Shown: piece after piece, positions 1-33,194 of the stretch
Numbering within the stretch: position 1 is the first letter of the stretch
How the letters are laid out: the number at the start of each line of letters is the position of its first letter
Sequence record: PZ583738.1
DNA length: 64,000 nucleotides
Source: a phage
Reading direction: 5' to 3' (one strand)
Position numbers and translations under genes: made by a program
The notes under the pieces: generated by a model
Database searches by the model: none
Told to the model about the DNA's origin: nothing
What the model saw: the letters and a program-made list of their open reading frames with translations, nothing else

Positions 1-1393
<1,393 letters not shown>

Positions 1394-1459: not shown

Positions 1460-1755
1460 AAGCCTGTCGGGTTGTTAACAAATATCAATCCGACTTTGAT
1501 GTGAATATTCAACGGGGTACCATGTGGGGAAACCCATATAAAGATGGTACCCGAGAAGAAAACATAAAGAACTTTAAAGAATATTTCATAGCAAAGATTA
1601 AATCGGGCGAAATCAAAAGAGAACACCTTGAAACCCTTCGCGGAATGCGATTAGCTTGTACATGCAAACCAAAAGCATGTCATGGGGATATCATCGCTCT
1701 GGTCGTTAACAAACTTTTCAAAGACACCTTTTCGCTCGAGGATTTGGGCGCATAA
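1456..1755 (+). CDS. hypothetical protein, DUF4326-like (WGNPY ... CTCKPKACHGD motifs); nrdA.2 position
   Basis: 99-aa ORF; motif pattern recalled for DUF4326; synteny between td and nrdA. Confidence 0.6.
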   Translation: MKACRVVNKYQSDFDVNIQRGTMWGNPYKDGTREENIKNFKEYFIAKIKSGEIKREHLETLRGMRLACTCKPKACHGDIIALVVNKLFKDTFSLEDLGA

Positions 1756-1763
1756 ATACGATT

Positions 1764-1788
1764 CCGCTTCAGGGCACTGTGATATAAT
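1764..1788 (+). promoter_or_regulatory. middle-type promoter (partial MotA box CGCTTCA, ~11-nt spacer, TATAAT)
   Basis: Sequence read directly; upstream of ORF 1815; coordinates +/-2. Confidence 0.4.
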
Positions 1789-1814
1789 TATTTAAAATTT
1801 AATGAGAGGAAATT

Positions 1815-2060
1815 ATGAATTTACGATTTAAACGCCAGTCAGGCGAAGTCATTTTTGAAATGCCACAATTTACCGAACAGGATTTACCTGCACCAAATTC
1901 TTATATCACTATTGACGGAATCAAATTTCTGGCCAAACGACATGAACGTGTCTACTGTCATGATTCAGCCGGTGACGTCCAGTCATATTTTGACATCACT
2001 GTCCAGTCAGAAGAAGAATATAATGATGAAATGACTTCGGAACTACCAGAGACAATTTAA
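1815..2060 (+). CDS. hypothetical protein (nrdA.1 position)
   Basis: 81-aa ORF with GAGAGGA RBS and upstream promoter-like element; synteny. Confidence 0.55.
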   Translation: MNLRFKRQSGEVIFEMPQFTEQDLPAPNSYITIDGIKFLAKRHERVYCHDSAGDVQSYFDITVQSEEEYNDEMTSELPETI

Positions 2061-2093
2061 GGTTCCCAACCCTTTTGAACTATAGAGGAAAAC

Positions 2094-4349
2094 ATGCAAG
2101 TACAAAAAAGTAGTGGTGTATCTCAAGATTTTGATGGCCAGAAAATTATTAAAGTTCTTTCCTGGTCATGTGAAGGAACTAATATCGACCCGTATGAATT
2201 ATACGAAACAATCAAACCACATCTGCGCGATGGCATGACTACTCGCGATATTCAGACGGTTATCATCAAAGTATCCGCTGGGCTTATTTCGGTTGAAGAA
2301 CCAGATTACCAATATGTTGCAGCCAAAGCTACGATGTTTGCTCTGCGTAAAGATGTTTATGGCCAGTTTGAGCCACGTTCTTTTATTGACCAGATTTCTT
2401 ATTGTGTTAATGAAGGTAAATATGACCCAGAGCTGTTGTCAAGCTACTCAGCTGAAGAGATTACTTACCTGGAATCTCGTATTAAGCACGAACGCGATTT
2501 TGACCTGACTTATGCAGGCGCGATGCAGCTTAAAGAGAAATACCTGGTTAAAGATAAAACCACTGGGAAAATCTATGAGACTCCACAGTTCGCTATCATG
2601 GCCATCGGCATGGCACTGCACCAGGATGAACCAACGGACCGTCTGAAGCACATTTGCCGTTTTTATGATGCAGTATCTACGCAGCAGATTTCGTTGCCCA
2701 CACCTATCATGGCGGGCGCCAGAACACCTACCCGACAGTTCAGTTCGTGTGTGGTTATCGAAGCTGCGGACTCCCTGAAGTCAATTAATAAGACTGCTAA
2801 TTCAATCATCGAATATATCAGCAAGCGTGCAGGTATTGGTATCAACGTTGGCATGATTCGTGCTGAAGGTTCGAAAATCGGTATGGGTGAAGTCAAGCAT
2901 ACTGGTGTTATTCCGTTCTGGAAACATTTCCAAACGGCTGTTAAATCATGTTCACAAGGTGGAATCCGTGGCGGCGCTGCTACTGCTTATTATCCTATTT
3001 GGCATTTGGAAGTTGAAAATTTACTCGTTCTGAAGAACAACAAGGGCGTTGAAGAAAACCGCATCAGACATATGGACTATGGTGTCCAGCTGAATAACCT
3101 GATGATGGAACGACTGGCTAAGAATGATTACATCACTCTGTTTAGTCCACACGAAGCTGGCAGTGAATTGTATTATTCATATTTTGATAACCCGGATAAA
3201 TTCCGCGAGTTATATGAAGCCTTAGAAAAAGACCCGACTGTTCGCAAGAAACGCATCAAAGCAAAAGATGTATTTGAATTATTCATGACCGAACGTTCCG
3301 GTACAGCCCGCGTTTATCCGCAGTTCGTTGATAACGTGAATGACTACACTCCGTTCATCCGTGACAAGGCTCCGATTCGTCAATCAAACCTTTGCTGTGA
3401 AATTGCAATCCCGACCACTGATGTAAACAGCGAAGATGCTGAAATCGGATTGTGCACGCTATCAGCATTTGTTCTGGATAGTTTTGACTGGCAGGACCAA
3501 GATAAGATTAACGAGCTGGCTGAAGTTCAAGTTCGTGCTCTTGATAACCTGTTGGACTATCAGGGTTATCCGGTTAAAGAAGCTCTGAAAGCCAAAAAAC
3601 GCCGCAACCTGGGTGTTGGGGTTACTAACTATGCTGCATGGTTGGCAAGCAATTTCGCTTCCTACGCTGATGCAAACGATTTAACGCATGAACTGTTCGA
3701 GAGATTACAATATGGCCTTATCCGAGCATCAATCAAGCTCGCCAAAGAAAAAGGACCTTGCGAATATTATTCAGACACTCGTTGGGCTCGAGGCGAATTA
3801 CCTATCGACTGGTACAATAAAAAGATTGACCAAATCGCAGCTCCAAACTACGTTTGTGACTGGGCGCAGTTGCGGGAAGACCTGGTTGAACATGGCATCC
3901 GTAATAGCACATTATCAGCACTTATGCCTTGTGAGTCATCTTCCCAAGTTTCTAACAGTACAAACGGTATCGAACCTCCGCGTGGACCAGTCTCTATTAA
4001 AGAGTCAAAAGAGGGTTCCTTTAATCAAGTCGTGCCCAATATTGAGCACAATAAAGGATTGTACGATTACGCATGGGTGCTAGCTAAGCAAGGTAACAAA
4101 CCTTATCTGACCCAAGTCGCGATTATGTTGAAATGGATTTGTCAGTCAGCATCAGCCAATACATATTATGACCCGCAGAATTATCCGAAAGGAAAAGTTC
4201 CGATGTCAGTTATGCTTGACGACTTGATGTACAGTTGGTATTTTGGTCTCAAGAATTTATATTATCATAATTCTCGTGATGGTTCTGGTCAAGATGATTA
4301 CGAAATTGAAGTTCCAAAAGCAGATGATTGCTCGGCATGTAAACTGTAA
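2094..4349 (+). CDS. nrdA: aerobic ribonucleoside-diphosphate reductase large subunit
   Basis: 751-aa ORF; class Ia RNR alpha features (ATP-cone N-terminus, C-terminal CSACKL-type tail); colinear with T4 NrdA. Confidence 0.96.
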   Translation: MQVQKSSGVSQDFDGQKIIKVLSWSCEGTNIDPYELYETIKPHLRDGMTTRDIQTVIIKVSAGLISVEEPDYQYVAAKATMFALRKDVYGQFEPRSFIDQISYCVNEGKYDPELLSSYSAEEITYLESRIKHERDFDLTYAGAMQLKEKYLVKDKTTGKIYETPQFAIMAIGMALHQDEPTDRLKHICRFYDAVSTQQISLPTPIMAGARTPTRQFSSCVVIEAADSLKSINKTANSIIEYISKRAGIGINVGMIRAEGSKIGMGEVKHTGVIPFWKHFQTAVKSCSQGGIRGGAATAYYPIWHLEVENLLVLKNNKGVEENRIRHMDYGVQLNNLMMERLAKNDYITLFSPHEAGSELYYSYFDNPDKFRELYEALEKDPTVRKKRIKAKDVFELFMTERSGTARVYPQFVDNVNDYTPFIRDKAPIRQSNLCCEIAIPTTDVNSEDAEIGLCTLSAFVLDSFDWQDQDKINELAEVQVRALDNLLDYQGYPVKEALKAKKRRNLGVGVTNYAAWLASNFASYADANDLTHELFERLQYGLIRASIKLAKEKGPCEYYSDTRWARGELPIDWYNKKIDQIAAPNYVCDWAQLREDLVEHGIRNSTLSALMPCESSSQVSNSTNGIEPPRGPVSIKESKEGSFNQVVPNIEHNKGLYDYAWVLAKQGNKPYLTQVAIMLKWICQSASANTYYDPQNYPKGKVPMSVMLDDLMYSWYFGLKNLYYHNSRDGSGQDDYEIEVPKADDCSACKL

Positions 4350-5074
4350 TGAATTATAAGAAAATATATGATTCTCTAATTGAGAGGCGGAAAGCCTCTC
4401 CTTTAGAAGGCTATACCGAATCCCATCATATTATTCCCAAATGCATGGGCGGCACAGATGACAAATCCAATTTAGTTAAATTATCAGCTCGAGAACATTT
4501 CGTTGCGCATCAATTACTGTACAAAATATATAGAACTCATGGATTACTTTGTGCTATTACATTAATGTGTACGGATAAATTTGGTAATAGATTGAATAAT
4601 CGATTATATGAATGGCATAGACTTAGATTTGCAGAGTCCTCTTCCAAACATATGAAAGAATATTTTAAAAATAATCCACATCCAAAGGGAATGTTAGGTA
4701 AGCATCATTCCGATAAATCTAAAGAACAAGTTTCAATTGCAAATAGAACTTCGGTTCCATCAATTAAAATTTTCAAATTTGATTTAGCCGGAAAATTTAT
4801 TGAAAGCTTCCAGTCAATTGCCGAAGCTGCTCGGCATGTTAACGGTAATGCATCAAATCTAAAATATTGTGCAGAAGGGAAATTCCAATATGCATATGGA
4901 TTCAGATGGTCATATAAACCGGATGCAACCTTTGCAGAAGTCAAGGACCGAGCATATAAAGGAATACGCGGTAAAATTTGGATTAATGATGGCTCATCTT
5001 GTACGCTTATAGAAAAGGGTGGTATTATACCTTCAGGTTGGAAACGTGGAAGAATTTTAAAGAGGAAAAATTAA
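4349..5074 (+). CDS. mobE: freestanding HNH homing endonuclease (MobE-like) between nrdA and nrdB
   Basis: HNH motif (ESHHIIPK...GG.D...N...REH..AH) at N-terminus; C-terminal NUMOD1-like helix (FQSIAEAARHVNGNASNLKYCAEGK...GFRW); same position as T4 mobE; start overlaps nrdA stop, stop overlaps nrdB start. Confidence 0.85.
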   Translation: MNYKKIYDSLIERRKASPLEGYTESHHIIPKCMGGTDDKSNLVKLSAREHFVAHQLLYKIYRTHGLLCAITLMCTDKFGNRLNNRLYEWHRLRFAESSSKHMKEYFKNNPHPKGMLGKHHSDKSKEQVSIANRTSVPSIKIFKFDLAGKFIESFQSIAEAARHVNGNASNLKYCAEGKFQYAYGFRWSYKPDATFAEVKDRAYKGIRGKIWINDGSSCTLIEKGGIIPSGWKRGRILKRKN

Positions 5075-6256: not shown

Positions 6257-6274
6257 AGGGCTTCGGCCCTTTTT
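6257..6274 (+). terminator. hairpin (AGGGC-TTCG-GCCCT) plus T5 between nrdB and denA
   Basis: Read directly; T-run abuts denA RBS region. Confidence 0.55.
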
Positions 6275-6278
6275 GCCC

Positions 6279-6689
6279 ATGAAACAAATCGCTGATGAAT
6301 ACAGTTTTATAAAATACGCGGAGTTAGAGTTAGTCGATGGTAAAATCCCTATCCTTACTCTCGCAAACAAGAAAAATGTTATCTATGCTATTTCAGTTGA
6401 TGATGAACTAGTGTATATTGGTAAGACGAACAACCTTAAGAAGCGTATCAACTATTACCGGACTGCAATTAACCGAATCGAACAGACGAGTGATTCAAAC
6501 AAATCCCGGATGATACATGAAGCTTTACAAGAAGGTAAAAAGGTGATATTCTATGCACGACAATGTTTCAATCTGTCAATGACCAATGAACTTGGCACAA
6601 TGTCAGTCGAAACGATGTCTCTAGAAGAGCCGATGTTCATCAAGCTTTTTAATCCCCCGTGGAATTACCAACATAAGGTGAAGAAATGA
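6279..6689 (+). CDS. denA: endonuclease II
   Basis: 136 aa from ATG at 6279 (MKQIADEYSFIKY...GKTNNLKKRINYYRTAINR) closely matches T4 DenA; track start 6273 is a TTG. Confidence 0.93.
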   Translation: MKQIADEYSFIKYAELELVDGKIPILTLANKKNVIYAISVDDELVYIGKTNNLKKRINYYRTAINRIEQTSDSNKSRMIHEALQEGKKVIFYARQCFNLSMTNELGTMSVETMSLEEPMFIKLFNPPWNYQHKVKK

Positions 6690-28932: not shown

Positions 28933-29367
28933 ATGAAAACAGAGATTGAATATAAGTTAGAAGTCTTTCAGGATGAGTTGGATGCAGATTTAAAAATTGA
29001 TGGTACACAACTTCAATATGAAACACAAAACAACGTTTTGTTGCATAGCAAATGGTTGAGATTGTATACCAACTGCAAGAAAGAAATAATGCGTCTTGAG
29101 ATTCAGAAGAAAACTGCACTGAAAAAACGACTAGACCATTATACAGGAAGGGGTGACCCAGGGGAAGAAGTATGCATGGATGTGTACGAGAAGTCAGAAT
29201 TGAAAACAGTCATGGCCGCAGATTCAAGCGTACTGAAGATTGATACGTCAATTCAGTATTGGACACTGCTCCAGGACTTCTGTAGCGCTGCATTAGATGG
29301 TGTTAAGTCACGAAGTTTCGCACTTAAACATATGTTAGAAATAAGACAATTTGAGGCGGGCAAGTAA
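28933..29367 (+). CDS. uvsY: recombination mediator UvsY
   Basis: 144 aa from ATG at 28933; LQYE..NNV.L.SKWL...KK...R.E.QKK.ALK.RLD.Y.GRGD matches T4 UvsY; MotA-box middle promoter upstream. Confidence 0.93.
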   Translation: MKTEIEYKLEVFQDELDADLKIDGTQLQYETQNNVLLHSKWLRLYTNCKKEIMRLEIQKKTALKKRLDHYTGRGDPGEEVCMDVYEKSELKTVMAADSSVLKIDTSIQYWTLLQDFCSAALDGVKSRSFALKHMLEIRQFEAGK

Positions 29368-29600
29368 TGCGATATTCTATCGACGATGCGTTTAACCAAG
29401 ACGAAGAGTTCGAAGAAGAAATTAAGTATATGATGAAGGAATGGAAATTGAATCGTGCAGATATTCGTATCTGCGCTGACCACCCTTGTGGTGAAGATGT
29501 TATCTATGTTAAAGGTAAATTTGCAGGATACATCGATGATGCGTTCTATTCTCACAATATGGGAATAGATACTGGTATGAGATACTTTAAGGAAAATTAA
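29367..29600 (+). CDS. hypothetical protein (uvsY.-1 position)
   Basis: 77-aa Cys-containing ORF, start overlaps uvsY stop. Confidence 0.6.
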   Translation: MRYSIDDAFNQDEEFEEEIKYMMKEWKLNRADIRICADHPCGEDVIYVKGKFAGYIDDAFYSHNMGIDTGMRYFKEN

Positions 29601-29711
29601 ATGAAAAATATTAGTAAGATTCTCGACGAGATGGTTATCTCTGCAAACCGAATAACCGAAATTGTTAATGAGATGAAAGCTCGTGCTGCTATTATGAAGA
29701 GCACTAAATAG
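29601..29711 (+). CDS. hypothetical 36-aa ORF
   Basis: ATG immediately after upstream stop; below track size cut-off; weak support. Confidence 0.3.
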   Translation: MKNISKILDEMVISANRITEIVNEMKARAAIMKSTK

Positions 29712-29739
29712 ATATGTAAGTTTAACTGAGGAGACAATC

Positions 29740-29907
29740 ATGTCAGATAAGATTTGTGTTGTCTGTAAAACTCCAATCGATTCTGCATTGGTTGTGGATA
29801 CAGACCAAGGTCCGGTGCATCCGGGCGCCTGTTATAATTATGTTCAGAGTTTGCCAGTTACGGAAAATACAGAAGAGCAACTGAACGAGACCCAACTTTT
29901 AATTTAG
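29740..29907 (+). CDS. hypothetical 55-aa protein with CxxC motif (CVVCKTP ... HPGAC)
   Basis: GAGGAG RBS at good spacing; followed by hairpin/T-run terminator. Confidence 0.4.
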   Translation: MSDKICVVCKTPIDSALVVDTDQGPVHPGACYNYVQSLPVTENTEEQLNETQLLI

Positions 29908-29935
29908 CTAGTGTTGTTAACCATTTTTTGGTTTT

Positions 29936-29968
29936 GCCCCTTCCTTTTGGTTGGGGCCTTTTTATTTA
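29936..29968 (+). terminator. imperfect hairpin (GCCCC...GGGGC) plus T-run after ORF 29740
   Basis: Large loop; T5 follows. Confidence 0.45.
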
Positions 29969-30193
29969 GAAATCTTCGTCTTCGTCTTCGTCCATATCCT
30001 CAAGCTCGGCACGTTTACCGGCAAGAGCGTCACGAACACTGATATCATCGGAATCTTTCAGTTCAGCTTCTTTGCTGCGTTTCTTATAATAGCCTTCCAA
30101 CTCCTTCAGACCGTCCATGGTCTGACAGGAACCAATCTTAGACATAAAGCTTTCGATTGATGCTTCGTACATAATTTCTTCGAAGGATTTCAT
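29966..30193 (-). CDS. UvsW.1-like small acidic protein
   Basis: 75 aa with acidic C-terminal tail (DMDEDEDEDF); located downstream of uvsW as in T4, but separated from it by an HNH gene. Confidence 0.6.
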   Translation of the reverse strand: MKSFEEIMYEASIESFMSKIGSCQTMDGLKELEGYYKKRSKEAELKDSDDISVRDALAGKRAELEDMDEDEDEDF

Positions 30194-30978
30194 TATATTT
30201 CCACCTGTTTAATAAATTTATCGACCATTTTCCCATAGTGTACTTTAGGATATCCAGCTTCGACAGCGATTTTGGTAAATCCCGTTACTTTAGGTTTATT
30301 GTTATTTATCCAAAGTAAAAATAACTCGTCATATAATAGCCAATGCGGATATTTTTTGGCATGAGTCTCTTTCCAATTTTTGGAATGGTCTTCACTTCTA
30401 AAAGATTTTTTAACACCTTTATTTGCCTTTCCCGCCTTAGAACATGTCGCATAATCACCCGCCTTGACAGGAGTAAATCCTTTCATAGCTTTAGATTTTT
30501 TGTCACGCGTTTCCTGAGACTGTTTGGACCCGGTGTTTTTTGCCCAGGCCTTTTCCAAAGCTTTTAATTTCGCGGGAGTGAATCCGACTTTTCGCATGGC
30601 GTCAATATGTATTTGGAGACGTTCTGCGGACCATTCATATGAACCATGATTATTACCCATCAAAGCTTCACTAATTAAATGTGATGCCTTTTCTTTAAGC
30701 AGTGTAATGGTTCTTGAACTAACTTCTTTTAGGCGTCGACCGTTTGTCATACCAAATGCTGCGCGCCATAATTTACCACCTTGTGCTTTTGCTAAAATAA
30801 CATGAGCTAATATATGTTCACGAACTGTTAAAGCAACTAAATTATTAGGATGGTTGGAACCTCCAACCGACTTTGGTATAATATGATGTATTTCAATTCG
30901 ACAAGGAGCAGAGGTCTTTGTCCAACCCCTTGTCCTTGCATTTGAAATTAAATCATCGTAAATTTTTTGATAATTCAT
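30193..30978 (-). CDS. freestanding HNH homing endonuclease (paralog of the mobE-like gene at 4349)
   Basis: HNH motif (IHHIIPKSVGGSNHPNNLVALTVREHILAH); N-terminus MNYQKIYDDLI parallels MNYKKIYDSLI of the 4349 ORF; NUMOD3-like SQETRDKKSKAMKG; overlap-coupled between uvsW and uvsW.1. Confidence 0.85.
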   Translation of the reverse strand: MNYQKIYDDLISNARTRGWTKTSAPCRIEIHHIIPKSVGGSNHPNNLVALTVREHILAHVILAKAQGGKLWRAAFGMTNGRRLKEVSSRTITLLKEKASHLISEALMGNNHGSYEWSAERLQIHIDAMRKVGFTPAKLKALEKAWAKNTGSKQSQETRDKKSKAMKGFTPVKAGDYATCSKAGKANKGVKKSFRSEDHSKNWKETHAKKYPHWLLYDELFLLWINNNKPKVTGFTKIAVEAGYPKVHYGKMVDKFIKQVEI

Positions 30979-32474
30979 AGTTCCACATGTTTCACTACAT
31001 AGTTAAAACGTTCATCAGCATATCGTTGAATACGTTCAAGGCCGTGTTTAAGAAGATAGTTCAAATGAACATATTTCTTTTTAGCGTTTGCTGATTTAGG
31101 ACGGACCCCCATGTCGTCAACGATATCCCAAACATTTGCTTGCGATTTGGATGCGTGTTTTCGAAGTACACGACCGATTGTTTGAAGGACAATTACCTTT
31201 GATTTTACACCGTGAGCGAAAATAATATGATGGAGGTTTTTAACGGAAATCCCCGTTGAGAATACACCATATGAAGCTACAACAATAATTCCCTTTCCAT
31301 TCTCTGCCATGACCTTCAGAGCATTACGGGTTTCGGTATCAACTTCACCAGAAACATAATACACTTTCTCATGACCAGCTTCCTTAAGCATTTCAAACAT
31401 CGATTTACCGTGCTCGATATTCTTAAACATCAAAAAGACGTTTTCATCTTTTTTAGAAAGCTTGAGTGCAAGATTTGTTACCCATTTATTTCGGCGTGTA
31501 GCTTTTGTAATTACCTTGATTTCATCCTGATAAGTTTTACCTTTCATTTTAACGGTGAATTCATCAGGGTATCGAAGGAAAATACTATTTATTTTAAGGT
31601 CAGTAACCTGGCCATCTTCCATCAATTTGGATGTTGATACTGGTTTAAAGATATCACCAAACAGACCCATATATTGCATAAGGTTGGCTTTGCCATCACG
31701 GAGTGAACCTGACAGACCAAATTTAAACATGCAATTCGTAAGGCCTTCGATAACCGTCGAAATCGATTTACCGGTCGCCATATGACATTCGTCATTCATA
31801 AACTGACCGAACTGTTCAAACCATTCTTTATGTTGTTTTACAGCCGTCTGATAAGTCGATACATAAATCATCGCATCAGAATCACGTTTAGTCCCGGAAC
31901 GAATACCCAGACAAGCTGCACGAGGGAAAAGCCGATAATCAACAAAGTCATTAATCATCTGGTCAACAAGGGCAGTTGTAGGAACAAGGATAAGCACCTT
32001 GCCTTCATAGTTCTCGAGATAATATCGCGCCAGAAGCGCCTGGATGAGGCTTTTACCTGCAGACGTAGGTAAGTTCAGAATCTTTCTTCTGTTGACCAGA
32101 CCATCATATACGGCGTCAGATTGATACCAATGGGGCGTTATCTTGGTATTGCCTGAATAGATTTCTTTTGACTCGACCCATTTGTCGAATTCTTCGCGAG
32201 AGATTTCTTCTTTCTCGGTGATTTGTGGGTCAATCCAGAATGAATAACCAAACTGGTCAGCGAACTTTTTAATTTGATTAACCAAACCGTATGGTAATTT
32301 ACGATTGTAATCCAGGAGGCGGATTCGTCCGTCCCAAACTCCCTGCTTGAACTTTGGATTGAAGCGATAGTTTTCAGCTTCGAAGCTGAAGTAATCACGG
32401 AGTTCGTAGAAGATTCCATCTTCGCATTCAACATGCACGTGACTAAAATTTAGAAAGTTGATTTTAATATCCAT
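30975..32474 (-). CDS. uvsW: UvsW ATP-dependent DNA/RNA helicase
   Basis: Start set at MDIKINF to match the T4 UvsW N-terminus; SF2 helicase motifs (LPTSAGKS, DECH); TATAAATA late promoter ~30 nt upstream. Confidence 0.95.
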   Translation of the reverse strand: MDIKINFLNFSHVHVECEDGIFYELRDYFSFEAENYRFNPKFKQGVWDGRIRLLDYNRKLPYGLVNQIKKFADQFGYSFWIDPQITEKEEISREEFDKWVESKEIYSGNTKITPHWYQSDAVYDGLVNRRKILNLPTSAGKSLIQALLARYYLENYEGKVLILVPTTALVDQMINDFVDYRLFPRAACLGIRSGTKRDSDAMIYVSTYQTAVKQHKEWFEQFGQFMNDECHMATGKSISTVIEGLTNCMFKFGLSGSLRDGKANLMQYMGLFGDIFKPVSTSKLMEDGQVTDLKINSIFLRYPDEFTVKMKGKTYQDEIKVITKATRRNKWVTNLALKLSKKDENVFLMFKNIEHGKSMFEMLKEAGHEKVYYVSGEVDTETRNALKVMAENGKGIIVVASYGVFSTGISVKNLHHIIFAHGVKSKVIVLQTIGRVLRKHASKSQANVWDIVDDMGVRPKSANAKKKYVHLNYLLKHGLERIQRYADERFNYVVKHVEL

Positions 32475-32502
32475 GATGATTCCAAGGTAATAAATATATC
32501 TA

Positions 32503-32510
32503 TATTTATA
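32503..32510 (-). promoter_or_regulatory. late promoter TATAAATA for uvsW
   Basis: Exact octamer on minus strand ~30 nt upstream of uvsW ATG. Confidence 0.65.
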
Positions 32511-32528
32511 CACTAACCGAGGTTCATC

Positions 32529-33194
32529 ATGATTGACAAGAACTACATTGAGGAAATTCGTGTCCTCGAGAAAAAAGAAGCCAAAGAAAAATTAGCCGAA
32601 TATGCAGCATCACTTGGTGTTGATGTTAAGAAAACAAAAACCTTTGATAATATGTTGGCTGACCTGGAAGCAGGACTTAAAGCATTTGCTGACATGCCTA
32701 TGCCTGATGATAATGAAGGCCTGAGCATCACTGACCTTATCGATGCCGATGATGAATTGTCAGGTGCTAAATTTGATGGCGATGAGTCAGCTAAAGAAGA
32801 AGCTAAACTCTTATTTGATGCTCCAACCGAAGCAAAGGTTGAAGTTGTTGAAATCGAAGAACCAGTTGTTGTGGTTGAAGAAGATGTTCCTTTTGTCGAA
32901 GAAAAGTTCGAAGCTGCTGTTGCTAAGGTTATCGAATCTGAAAAACCTGTATTTGCTCTGCCAAAAAACTTTAGTCCAAATCTTATGCTTATTGGTAAGA
33001 ACCCTGGATTCTGTACTGTTCCATGGTGGATTTATCAGTGGATTGCCGAGACTCCAGATTGGAAAGAACGTCCAACTGCTTTCCCACATCCCACCGCACA
33101 CCAAACTCTATTCAGTTTGATTTATTACATCAATCGTAATGGGTCTGTTCTAGTACGAGAAACTCGTAACTCATCTTTTGTCACTTTAAAATAA
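32529..33194 (+). CDS. Inh-like protein (inhibitor of prohead protease), by position
   Basis: 221-aa acidic protein between uvsW and hoc, the position of T4 inh; sequence identity not verified. Confidence 0.45.
   Translation: MIDKNYIEEIRVLEKKEAKEKLAEYAASLGVDVKKTKTFDNMLADLEAGLKAFADMPMPDDNEGLSITDLIDADDELSGAKFDGDESAKEEAKLLFDAPTEAKVEVVEIEEPVVVVEEDVPFVEEKFEAAVAKVIESEKPVFALPKNFSPNLMLIGKNPGFCTVPWWIYQWIAETPDWKERPTAFPHPTAHQTLFSLIYYINRNGSVLVRETRNSSFVTLK

Follow-up and report, generated by a model that had tools for sequence, protein, structure and literature searches.

A Mob-type HNH homing endonuclease gene inserted in the 3′ end of the phage helicase gene uvsW, with a substitute gene end and a predicted target upstream of helicase motif VI

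What kind of gene can lie between two neighboring genes of a phage operon, overlap both of them and yet leave both apparently whole, and on which sequence would its product act? These questions are raised by the uvsW locus of a 64,000-nucleotide (nt) stretch of phage DNA (sequence record PZ583738.1), the whole of which is referred to here as the window. The helicase gene uvsW and the small gene uvsW.1 are adjacent in T4, as a preliminary description of this DNA had noted, and in about 450 other Tequatrovirus records. In the window they are separated by an open reading frame (ORF) of 261 amino acids (aa), located at 30193 to 30978 on the minus strand, as are all features of this locus. The comparisons described here indicate that this ORF is very probably a free-standing homing endonuclease gene (HEG) of the T-even "Mob" HNH type, representing a lineage (lineage A) with the uvsW 3′ end as its specific site.

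Assignment of the ORF to the HNH homing endonucleases, and its position between uvsW and uvsW.1 with an overlap at either end, had both been proposed in the preliminary description and were borne out. The product (MNYQKIYDDLI...HHIIPKS...REHILAH in the ORF listing of the window) matched the Pfam family HNH (PF01844) over aa 28 to 50 with a score of 22.9 bits against a cut-off of 21.4 and, over aa 1 to 257, matched PHROG 655, "homing endonuclease," at 1.2e-45. Residues H31, H32, N46, H55 and H59 were invariant across 19 homologues, and an AlphaFold2 model placed strands at residues 28 to 32 and 47 to 51 and a helix at residues 52 to 66, with predicted local distance difference test scores of about 90 or above. 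The protein thus has the catalytic histidine, structural asparagine and metal-ligand histidine of the HNH beta-beta-alpha-metal superfamily, within an N-terminal nuclease domain of 66 aa (30781 to 30978). A C-terminal module (aa ∼196 to 255; 30214 to 30393), presumed to bind DNA, had no Pfam family match; it is conserved among the homologues and consists of three helices. Confidence of the model was high for this module and the HNH domain but poor in the linker. A fold search gave weak matches to Cas8-HNH and the GVE2 HNH protein, and a sequence search among solved structures matched only the HNH motif of Cas8-HNH and McrA, with E values of 0.085 or worse. The dN/dS ratio (nonsynonymous to synonymous substitution rates) relative to the orthologue of Yersinia phage P8 was 0.12, indicating that the HEG is under purifying selection.

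The N-terminal HNH domain with a separate C-terminal region, the sporadic distribution with precise empty sites described below and the location outside any intron are the features of free-standing T-even Mob-type genes. An intron-encoded HNH enzyme of the I-HmuI or I-TevIII class was considered and rejected: no Rfam group I intron match was obtained at an E value of 1 or below, nor was any other RNA family detected, there is no noncoding sequence around the ORF and the insert of 782 nt is essentially all ORF. The gene is a new, uncharacterized member of the Mob family, a kind that is itself already known. Some of its orthologues are labeled "Mob-like HNH homing endonuclease" in GenBank, while that of Escherichia phage P479 is labeled "hypothetical protein." Two further observations were made within the gene. 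Nucleotide identity to P8 falls to 57 to 63% in a patch of ∼90 nt (30458 to 30547), compared with 90 to 95% elsewhere; this patch corresponds to the low-confidence linker (aa ∼145 to 175) and suggests possible mosaicism within the HEG. There is also an internal repeat of 34 nt (30351 to 30384 and 30495 to 30528), which points to putative repeated helical modules.

The preliminary description had the gene inserted between uvsW and uvsW.1. This is correct as to location, but the insertion is not simply intergenic, as it lies inside the ancestral 3′ end of uvsW. Alignment of carrier and empty alleles placed a 782-nt cassette in frame, six codons ahead of the ancestral uvsW stop. In empty phages of the genus Gaprivervirus, uvsW ends in ...NYV IKQVEI, with a stop codon that overlaps the ATG of uvsW.1. 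In the window, this native tail (ATT AAA CAG GTG GAA ATA TAA; 30193 to 30213) has been displaced and supplies the last six codons and the stop of the HEG; it is identical, base for base, to the end of uvsW in the empty alleles of VR7, VR25 and EAWsc9. The HEG lacks a stop codon of its own; its reading frame terminates at the ancestral stop of uvsW. A substitute tail, VKHVEL (GTG AAA CAT GTG GAA CTA TGA; 30975 to 30995), which shares 16 of its 21 bases with the displaced copy, was carried in with the cassette. As this tail is brought by the 5′ end of the cassette, UvsW is kept at full length. It also provides the HEG with a weak Shine-Dalgarno sequence (GTGGA) and an ATGA overlap (...GAA CTA TGA) between the uvsW stop and the HEG start. 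At the other junction, the displaced tail holds the Shine-Dalgarno sequence of uvsW.1 (GGTGGA) and a TAATG overlap (...GAA ATA TAA TG), both of which are untouched because the HEG reads through this tail to the old stop. The alignments, therefore, show an in-frame insertion in which a new end is supplied to uvsW and the displaced end is put to use again.

Equivalent substitute tails were observed in P8, Bp7, UP19, T6, EnC07 and PhT2-v2; in Bp7, T6 and UP19, the Shine-Dalgarno sequence provided by this tail is GAGGT, and most relatives of the HEG have a TTG start. Among the homologues, the conserved part of the protein ends in ...GKMV.KF, and the residues beyond this point vary in the same way as uvsW tails. 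The two tail copies were also recovered as a repeat (D8); they are spaced 782 nt apart, the size of the indel. As a 16-nt repeat at 88% identity, D8 is unremarkable by itself; it is notable because its copies sit at both junctions and because of the comparative data. In the Acinetobacter phages PhT2 and PhT2-v2, which lack uvsW.1, the lineage-A gene of PhT2-v2 still reads into the native uvsW end, so the association is with the end of uvsW and not with uvsW.1. A footprint left by precise loss of the HEG was looked for in OES_C-1, an empty Tequatrovirus that is closest to T6, and was rejected, as this phage has the native rather than the substitute tail and no excision scar.

Comparison of this junction among relatives, which the preliminary description had proposed as a means of detecting presence/absence polymorphism, revealed that empty alleles are common, and a site without empty alleles is clearly not what was found. 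The uvsW region of the window is 99.1% identical to that of P479, a Gaprivervirus, and three alleles of the junction were detected in this genus: empty, lineage A and a second lineage (lineage B). Empty alleles, in which the uvsW stop overlaps the uvsW.1 start, are present in VR7, VR20, VR25, RZ and EAWsc9. Lineage A occupies junctions of the Gaprivervirus type in P479 and in Yersinia phage P8, whose protein has 90% aa identity to that of the window, and an insert of ∼692 nt of the lineage-B type is present in SP18, UPEC01, DK-13, TH40 and pEC-M719-6WT.2. In Dhakavirus, four records carry lineage A, two carry lineage B and about 47 are empty. Lineage A was found in 4 of 32 Karamvirus records and 14 of 33 records of Acinetobacter Twarogvirinae, with lineage B not seen in either group. 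The 502 Tequatrovirus records contained no lineage-A gene and 49 lineage-B genes, including that of T6, T4 itself being empty. Precise presence/absence polymorphism of lineage A was, therefore, observed in Gaprivervirus, Dhakavirus, Karamvirus and Acinetobacter Twarogvirinae, as it was for lineage B in Tequatrovirus, and a lineage-A orthologue at the same junction was detected in Aeromonas phages (Angelvirus). Proteins with 42 to 76% identity to that of the window are encoded directly after uvsW in Bp7, EnC07, AbTZA1, Aeromonas phage AsFcp_2 and Vibrio phage PVA23 (Schizotequatrovirus); the first four have the same 4-nt overlap with uvsW as the window, while the PVA23 copy lies just after uvsW without an overlap.

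Lineage B differs from lineage A in length (230 to 231 aa in SP18, UP19 and T6 versus 260 to 264 aa) and shares with it the insertion point and the layout. In SP18 and UPEC01, it is a Mob-type protein of 231 aa whose TTG start codon overlaps the stop of uvsW (TTGA), and it has an HNH domain, two NUMOD3 motifs and an I-TevI-like DNA-binding end. In each genus, the lineage-B gene ends with the tail of the local empty uvsW, namely, IKQVEI in Gaprivervirus, MKQVDL in Dhakavirus (UP19 and PSD2002 compared with QL01) and KTVNL in Tequatrovirus (T6 compared with T4 and OES_C-1), each followed by the stop codon. The first 33 nt of the lineage-A and lineage-B genes of Escherichia coli phages are identical at 30 positions, and AsFcp_2 and PVA23 have a lineage-A-like body joined to a lineage-B-like C-terminal domain.

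Several peculiarities were encountered in the records of these phages. The genes of SP18 (locus 1994-2689) and UPEC01 (locus 1993-2688) have annotations that begin at an internal ATG, give 199 aa and leave a "spacer" of 92 nt; the full ORF of 231 aa includes the HNH domain, and these annotations are probably too short. In T6, uvsW lies between two endonuclease genes, one annotated upstream at the position of T4 segE and the lineage-B Mob gene at the 3′ end, the latter being followed by a hairpin and then by uvsW.1 with its own Shine-Dalgarno sequence. The Bp7 record has uvsW annotated as two fragments (1001..1213 and 1524..2504), which may reflect disruption of the host gene in an HEG carrier or a sequence error. 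In the T4 reference record, AF158101.6, a known sequencing error at about position 1500 of the locus fuses uvsW and uvsW.1 (...AATTTAATAAGCTTCGG compared with AATTTATAAGGGCTTCGG in OES_C-1 and T6).

The distribution of the gene bears on whether it might be a domesticated accessory nuclease, aiding UvsW and UvsW.1 in recombination or repair and retained for the benefit of the phage. Embedding in, and translational coupling to, the uvsW-uvsW.1 operon would fit such a role, as would the purifying selection and the constant position next to uvsW. A gene serving the phage in this way is, however, difficult to reconcile with its absence, with clean empty sites, from roughly 60 to 95% of the genomes of each genus or group, with the ability of a different Mob lineage to fill the same site, with the existence of decayed or split copies with membership of the Mob HEG family and with a linked recoded flank typical of homing; we consider domestication very improbable. 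Maestro, Morttis, AB-Navy71 and KMB20 have split or truncated orthologues, which a homing endonuclease gene passing through gain, decay and loss in a cycle would be expected to leave. The HEGs of P8 and the window differ with a synonymous distance (dS) of 0.51, while their flanks are 93 to 100% identical, indicating that the genes of P479 and P8, present on nearly identical backbones, represent separate and fairly recent acquisitions.

The window is 97 to 100% identical to UPEC01 and SP18 through uvsW and uvsW.1, except in the last ∼237 nt of uvsW. This segment (30975 to 31211), recoded or foreign, is linked to the HEG in the manner of a co-conversion tract: 38 differences from UPEC01 were counted over 240 nt, compared with 8 over the 360 nt lying upstream (p = 1.6e-9). 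The tract was significant in every lineage-A pair compared, with p values ranging from 1e-9 to 1e-60, including Bp7 versus QL01 (p = 5e-25), EnC07 versus PG7 (p = 3e-20) and PhT2-v2 versus PhT2 (p = 1e-60). In the last pair, there are 65 substitutions in 238 nt, compared with 26 in the 3,546 nt upstream. Lineage-B carriers also exhibited such tracts, as seen for UP19 and PSD2002 versus QL01 (p = 6e-9 and 4.5e-24, respectively) and for T6 versus T4 (p = 2.3e-19, with a step at about −170). The tract of P8 is patchy. No donor of the foreign uvsW tract was found in the phage collection, the best non-self matches having identities of 87.6% (P8) and about 85% (the local genus). The two Acinetobacter phages share a name stem: PhT2 and PhT2-v2 differ by the lineage-A HEG and the 238-nt recoded flank and are about 99% identical over the 3.5 kb upstream of the tract. 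If PhT2-v2 arose in the laboratory or in a cocktail, then acquisition of an HEG would have been directly observed.

The first codon of the tract is common to all lineage-A pairs, which span four genera, and changes from proline (CCR) in the empty alleles to glycine (GGN) in the carriers. In the window this codon is at 31211 to 31209, about 240 bp from the HEG, in the context ...(F/L)AH-P-VKSK... and just upstream of helicase motif VI (QTIGRVLR). As a control, five Gaprivervirus alleles without lineage A were compared and found to differ at no more than two positions in the 75 nt around this codon. Known free-standing HEGs of T4 cut hundreds of base pairs from their own gene, and the interval is co-converted (PMC2988022); this distant cutting, together with the start of the tract, leads to the prediction that the cut or recognition region of the lineage-A enzyme lies near codon 31209-31211. 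The change of CCR to GGN is a candidate for one conferring immunity and would probably protect carriers from their own enzyme. Tequatrovirus natively has glycine at this codon and has no lineage-A occupant, which fits the proposed cut site and does not prove it. If the proposal is true, the native glycine would explain why Tequatrovirus carries lineage B and never lineage A. Immunity due to the substitute tail alone was also considered as a candidate and is weakened by SP18 and UPEC01, in which the substitute tail is almost native.

A number of observations weigh against this interpretation of the flank. The last ∼180 nt of uvsW are polymorphic among empty phages as well, with VR7 and VR25 differing at 34 of 240 positions in the downstream part and at 8 of 360 upstream. 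Only the cluster at −240 to −180 and the proline-to-glycine codon are, therefore, specific for lineage A. The empty phage OES_C-1 has T6-type sequence at −180 to −90, a T4-type tail and no HEG; it looks recombinant and may be a product of partial conversion or a descendant of an HEG loss. The shared boundary of the tract could also have resulted from crossovers forced into the conserved sequence coding for motifs V and VI. SP18 and UPEC01, which carry lineage B, have no recoded tract in addition to their nearly native substitute tail, indicating that recoding of the tail is unnecessary for the persistence of carriers. Lastly, the literature searched contained no description of the protein encoded at this site or of its orthologues.

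These carriers without a recoded flank, together with the visible decay of several orthologues, would also be explained if the gene were a stranded HEG, an intact-looking relic that is fixed in its lineage, is no longer mobile and cuts no available target. The intact ORF, the invariant catalytic residues and the dN/dS ratio of 0.12 are contrary to such a state, as are the dS of 0.51 between the P479 and P8 alleles on nearly identical backbones, which points to separate and fairly recent acquisitions, and the many empty targets that circulate in the same hosts. A stranded relic, thus, appears unlikely, and a homing endonuclease gene that is still mobile is preferred. A more far-reaching proposal can be put forward tentatively and with rather more doubt than conviction: that the Straboviridae have, in the 3′ end of uvsW, an old homing site for which two Mob lineages compete, that both use a replacement of the gene end otherwise described only for fungal mitochondrial mobile ORFs, that lineage A cuts just before motif VI and that a single swap of proline for glycine immunizes the carrier.

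How would a mobile element of this type operate? The host gene uvsW, which is also the probable target, extends from 30975 to 32474 (Pfam matches to UvsW_N at 2.6e-40, ResIII and Helicase_C), its start being taken as the ATG at 32474 on the basis of the annotation of the near-identical phage P479. A T4-type late-promoter motif, TATAAATA, is present upstream of uvsW at 32503 to 32510 and was the only one found on this strand in a motif scan of 29700 to 32700. Inside the HEG, scanning detected no late TATAAATA motif and no full MotA box, matches to sigma-70-like promoters were at chance level (9 found versus 8.8 expected) and no internal terminator exceeded chance. The cassette would, thus, be promoterless, with late transcription from the uvsW promoter, and coupling to uvsW would give the HEG a low level of translation. 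Low-level coupled translation has been proposed for mobE of T4 (PMC2988022). An RNA hairpin masking the HEG's ribosome-binding site, as in mobE and I-TevI, was rejected, since the fold of 30930 to 31040 was no better than that of shuffled sequences (z = −0.27). In a mixed infection, the enzyme would nick or cut uvsW of a phage lacking the HEG, most likely near the ...AH-P-VKSK... codons, which lie just upstream of motif VI at a distance of about 240 bp from the HEG. The carrier genome would then serve as the template for recombinational repair, by which the HEG and the stretch between it and the cut are copied, with the recoded tract at 30975 to 31211 as the outcome.

Downstream of the HEG is uvsW.1 (75 aa; 29966 to 30193; Pfam UvsW-1, 4.5e-24), followed by a GC-rich hairpin at 29936 to 29957 (−16.2 kcal/mol; z = −2.2) that likely forms the end of the uvsW-HEG-uvsW.1 transcription unit. 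A conserved bidirectional terminator is reported at the same position in T4-like phages (PMC1524935). A further presence/absence polymorphism adjoins the uvsW locus: the uvsY.-1 region (∼29371 to 29700, with an ORF of 77 aa at 29367 to 29600) is absent from VR7 and present in SP18, UPEC01 and P479.

Could the gene have originated within this genome? The preliminary description had noted a resemblance to a mobE-like ORF at 4349 to 5074 (plus strand) and had suggested that one endonuclease lineage was duplicated or transposed to two loci. The resemblance is real at the N terminus, where BLASTP detected 46% identity over aa 1 to 64 (64 to 67 aa aligned; E = 6e-15), and both proteins belong to PHROG 655; these two points would fit a recent copy between the nrdA/nrdB site and the uvsW site, in either direction. 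Nothing significant was found further on, however, and the C-terminal modules differ, that of ORF 4349 to 5074 containing NUMOD1 (Pfam). Full-length orthologues at the same site in other phages are far closer, with identities of 54 to 90% for the uvsW site (five genera) and 66 to 100% for mobE. Lineage B is nearer to MobE (45% over 131 aa) than lineage A is, and the pairwise identities already point to the two genes of the window not being sisters. The suggestion of a duplication is, therefore, not supported, and a recent intragenomic copy is so improbable as to be barely credible.

The ORF at 4349 to 5074 is instead the mobE orthologue, lying between nrdA and nrdB, with the features of the MobE group, which the protein at the uvsW site lacks; it is 66% identical over its full length to MobE of RB3, located at nrdA/nrdB, and 100% identical only to a protein of phage DK-13. 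Since the two genes share only the HNH domain and have their closest full-length relatives at their own sites in other phages, they are distant, old paralogues of the Mob family, each bound to its own site. The window is a mosaic with respect to phages in the database, the HEG at the uvsW site being that of P479 (100% aa identity) and mobE that of DK-13, which carries lineage B at uvsW. The mobE orthologue overlaps its neighbors by 1 nt at both ends (base 4349 belongs also to the stop codon of nrdA, and base 5074 to the ATG of nrdB) and, like the HEG at uvsW, is of a promoterless, coupled design. Just after nrdB is a GIY-YIG ORF of 138 aa (6273 to 6689; PHROG 1111, "endonuclease," 6.7e-60). 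Where it lies and how long it is, set against the T4 gene map, make this ORF look like a homologue of T4 denA (endonuclease II) and not like a homing endonuclease gene.

Free-standing homing endonucleases help to drive mosaicism and marker exclusion in T4-like phages, and few Mob enzymes have a mapped target. The uvsW site has an instructive insertion layout, illustrating that a spare gene end can allow an HEG into coding sequence with neither an intron nor an intein, and yields a concrete and testable prediction of a cut site and of a change conferring immunity. Its three allelic states (empty, A and B) form a natural comparison, as all are represented among E. coli phages that are closely related and can be cultivated, the classical phage T6 among them. 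The findings are also relevant to annotation, given the shortened lineage-B genes of SP18 and UPEC01 and the "hypothetical protein" of P479, and to phage therapy cocktails, in which such elements move flanking helicase sequence between coinfecting phages.

Among known systems, I-HmuI of Bacillus phage introns resembles the protein described here in having, next to an HNH nuclease, an extended helical region for DNA binding, the latter being presumed in our case. HEGs of the I-HmuI type nick one strand (PMC2988022), and nicking of one strand would be expected for the enzyme at the uvsW site. The present gene differs in its location outside an intron, and neither sequence nor fold searches yielded a match to I-HmuI. 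Parallels are also found with the free-standing HEGs of T4, which are promoterless and overlap the upstream ORF (PMC2988022). MobA to MobE, of which MobE lies between nrdA and nrdB, have an N-terminal HNH domain with the pattern MNY..IY..LI...HHIIPK and a separate C-terminal region. They are likewise encoded by promoterless cassettes within operons, with a start overlapping the upstream stop and a sporadic distribution among close relatives, and probably cut at some distance, within a neighboring gene that is conserved (PMC2988022). The HEG at uvsW differs from these in its site, in a C-terminal module that has no Pfam match to NUMOD1 or NUMOD3, in lying within the host ORF, to which it brings a substitute end while reading through into the displaced one, and in that neither an internal terminator nor a hairpin at the ribosome-binding site was detected.

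SegE of T4 is a free-standing HEG between inh and uvsW with uvsW as its target gene (PMC2988022, Table 1), and is thus similar in having the target predicted here. It is, however, a GIY-YIG enzyme encoded on the 5′ side of uvsW and is absent from the window, where inh abuts uvsW. Occupation of one site by alternative endonucleases also has a counterpart: in relatives of T4, SegH and Hef reportedly take the place of mobC and mobE (Sandegren et al. 2005, as cited in PMC2988022). In both cases, different endonuclease genes are found at one site, in the present case lineages A and B at a single nucleotide position; here, both occupants are of the Mob-type HNH kind and have the same junction design.

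The layout itself has a counterpart in fungal mitochondria, in which mobile ORFs replace the 3′ end of a gene (atp6 of Allomyces and atp6, atp9, cox2 and nad3 of Glomus) (PMC3630166). In each, the host gene runs in frame into a foreign C-terminal end; an endonuclease ORF comes next, and then the displaced native C terminus, which is identical to that of close relatives (PMC3630166). The same order of foreign end, endonuclease ORF and displaced native end is present at uvsW. The fungal enzymes are LAGLIDADG or GIY-YIG proteins of eukaryotic organelles, whereas that at uvsW is an HNH protein of a phage, and the fungal elements duplicate tens to hundreds of base pairs, compared with 18 to 21 nt here. 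The HEG at uvsW, therefore, appears to work like the class of mobile ORFs that replace gene ends, without being a member of those families. In the fungal elements, the displaced end is an untranslated or pseudogenic remnant; at uvsW, it is reused as the C terminus and stop of the HEG and as the following gene's ribosome-binding site.

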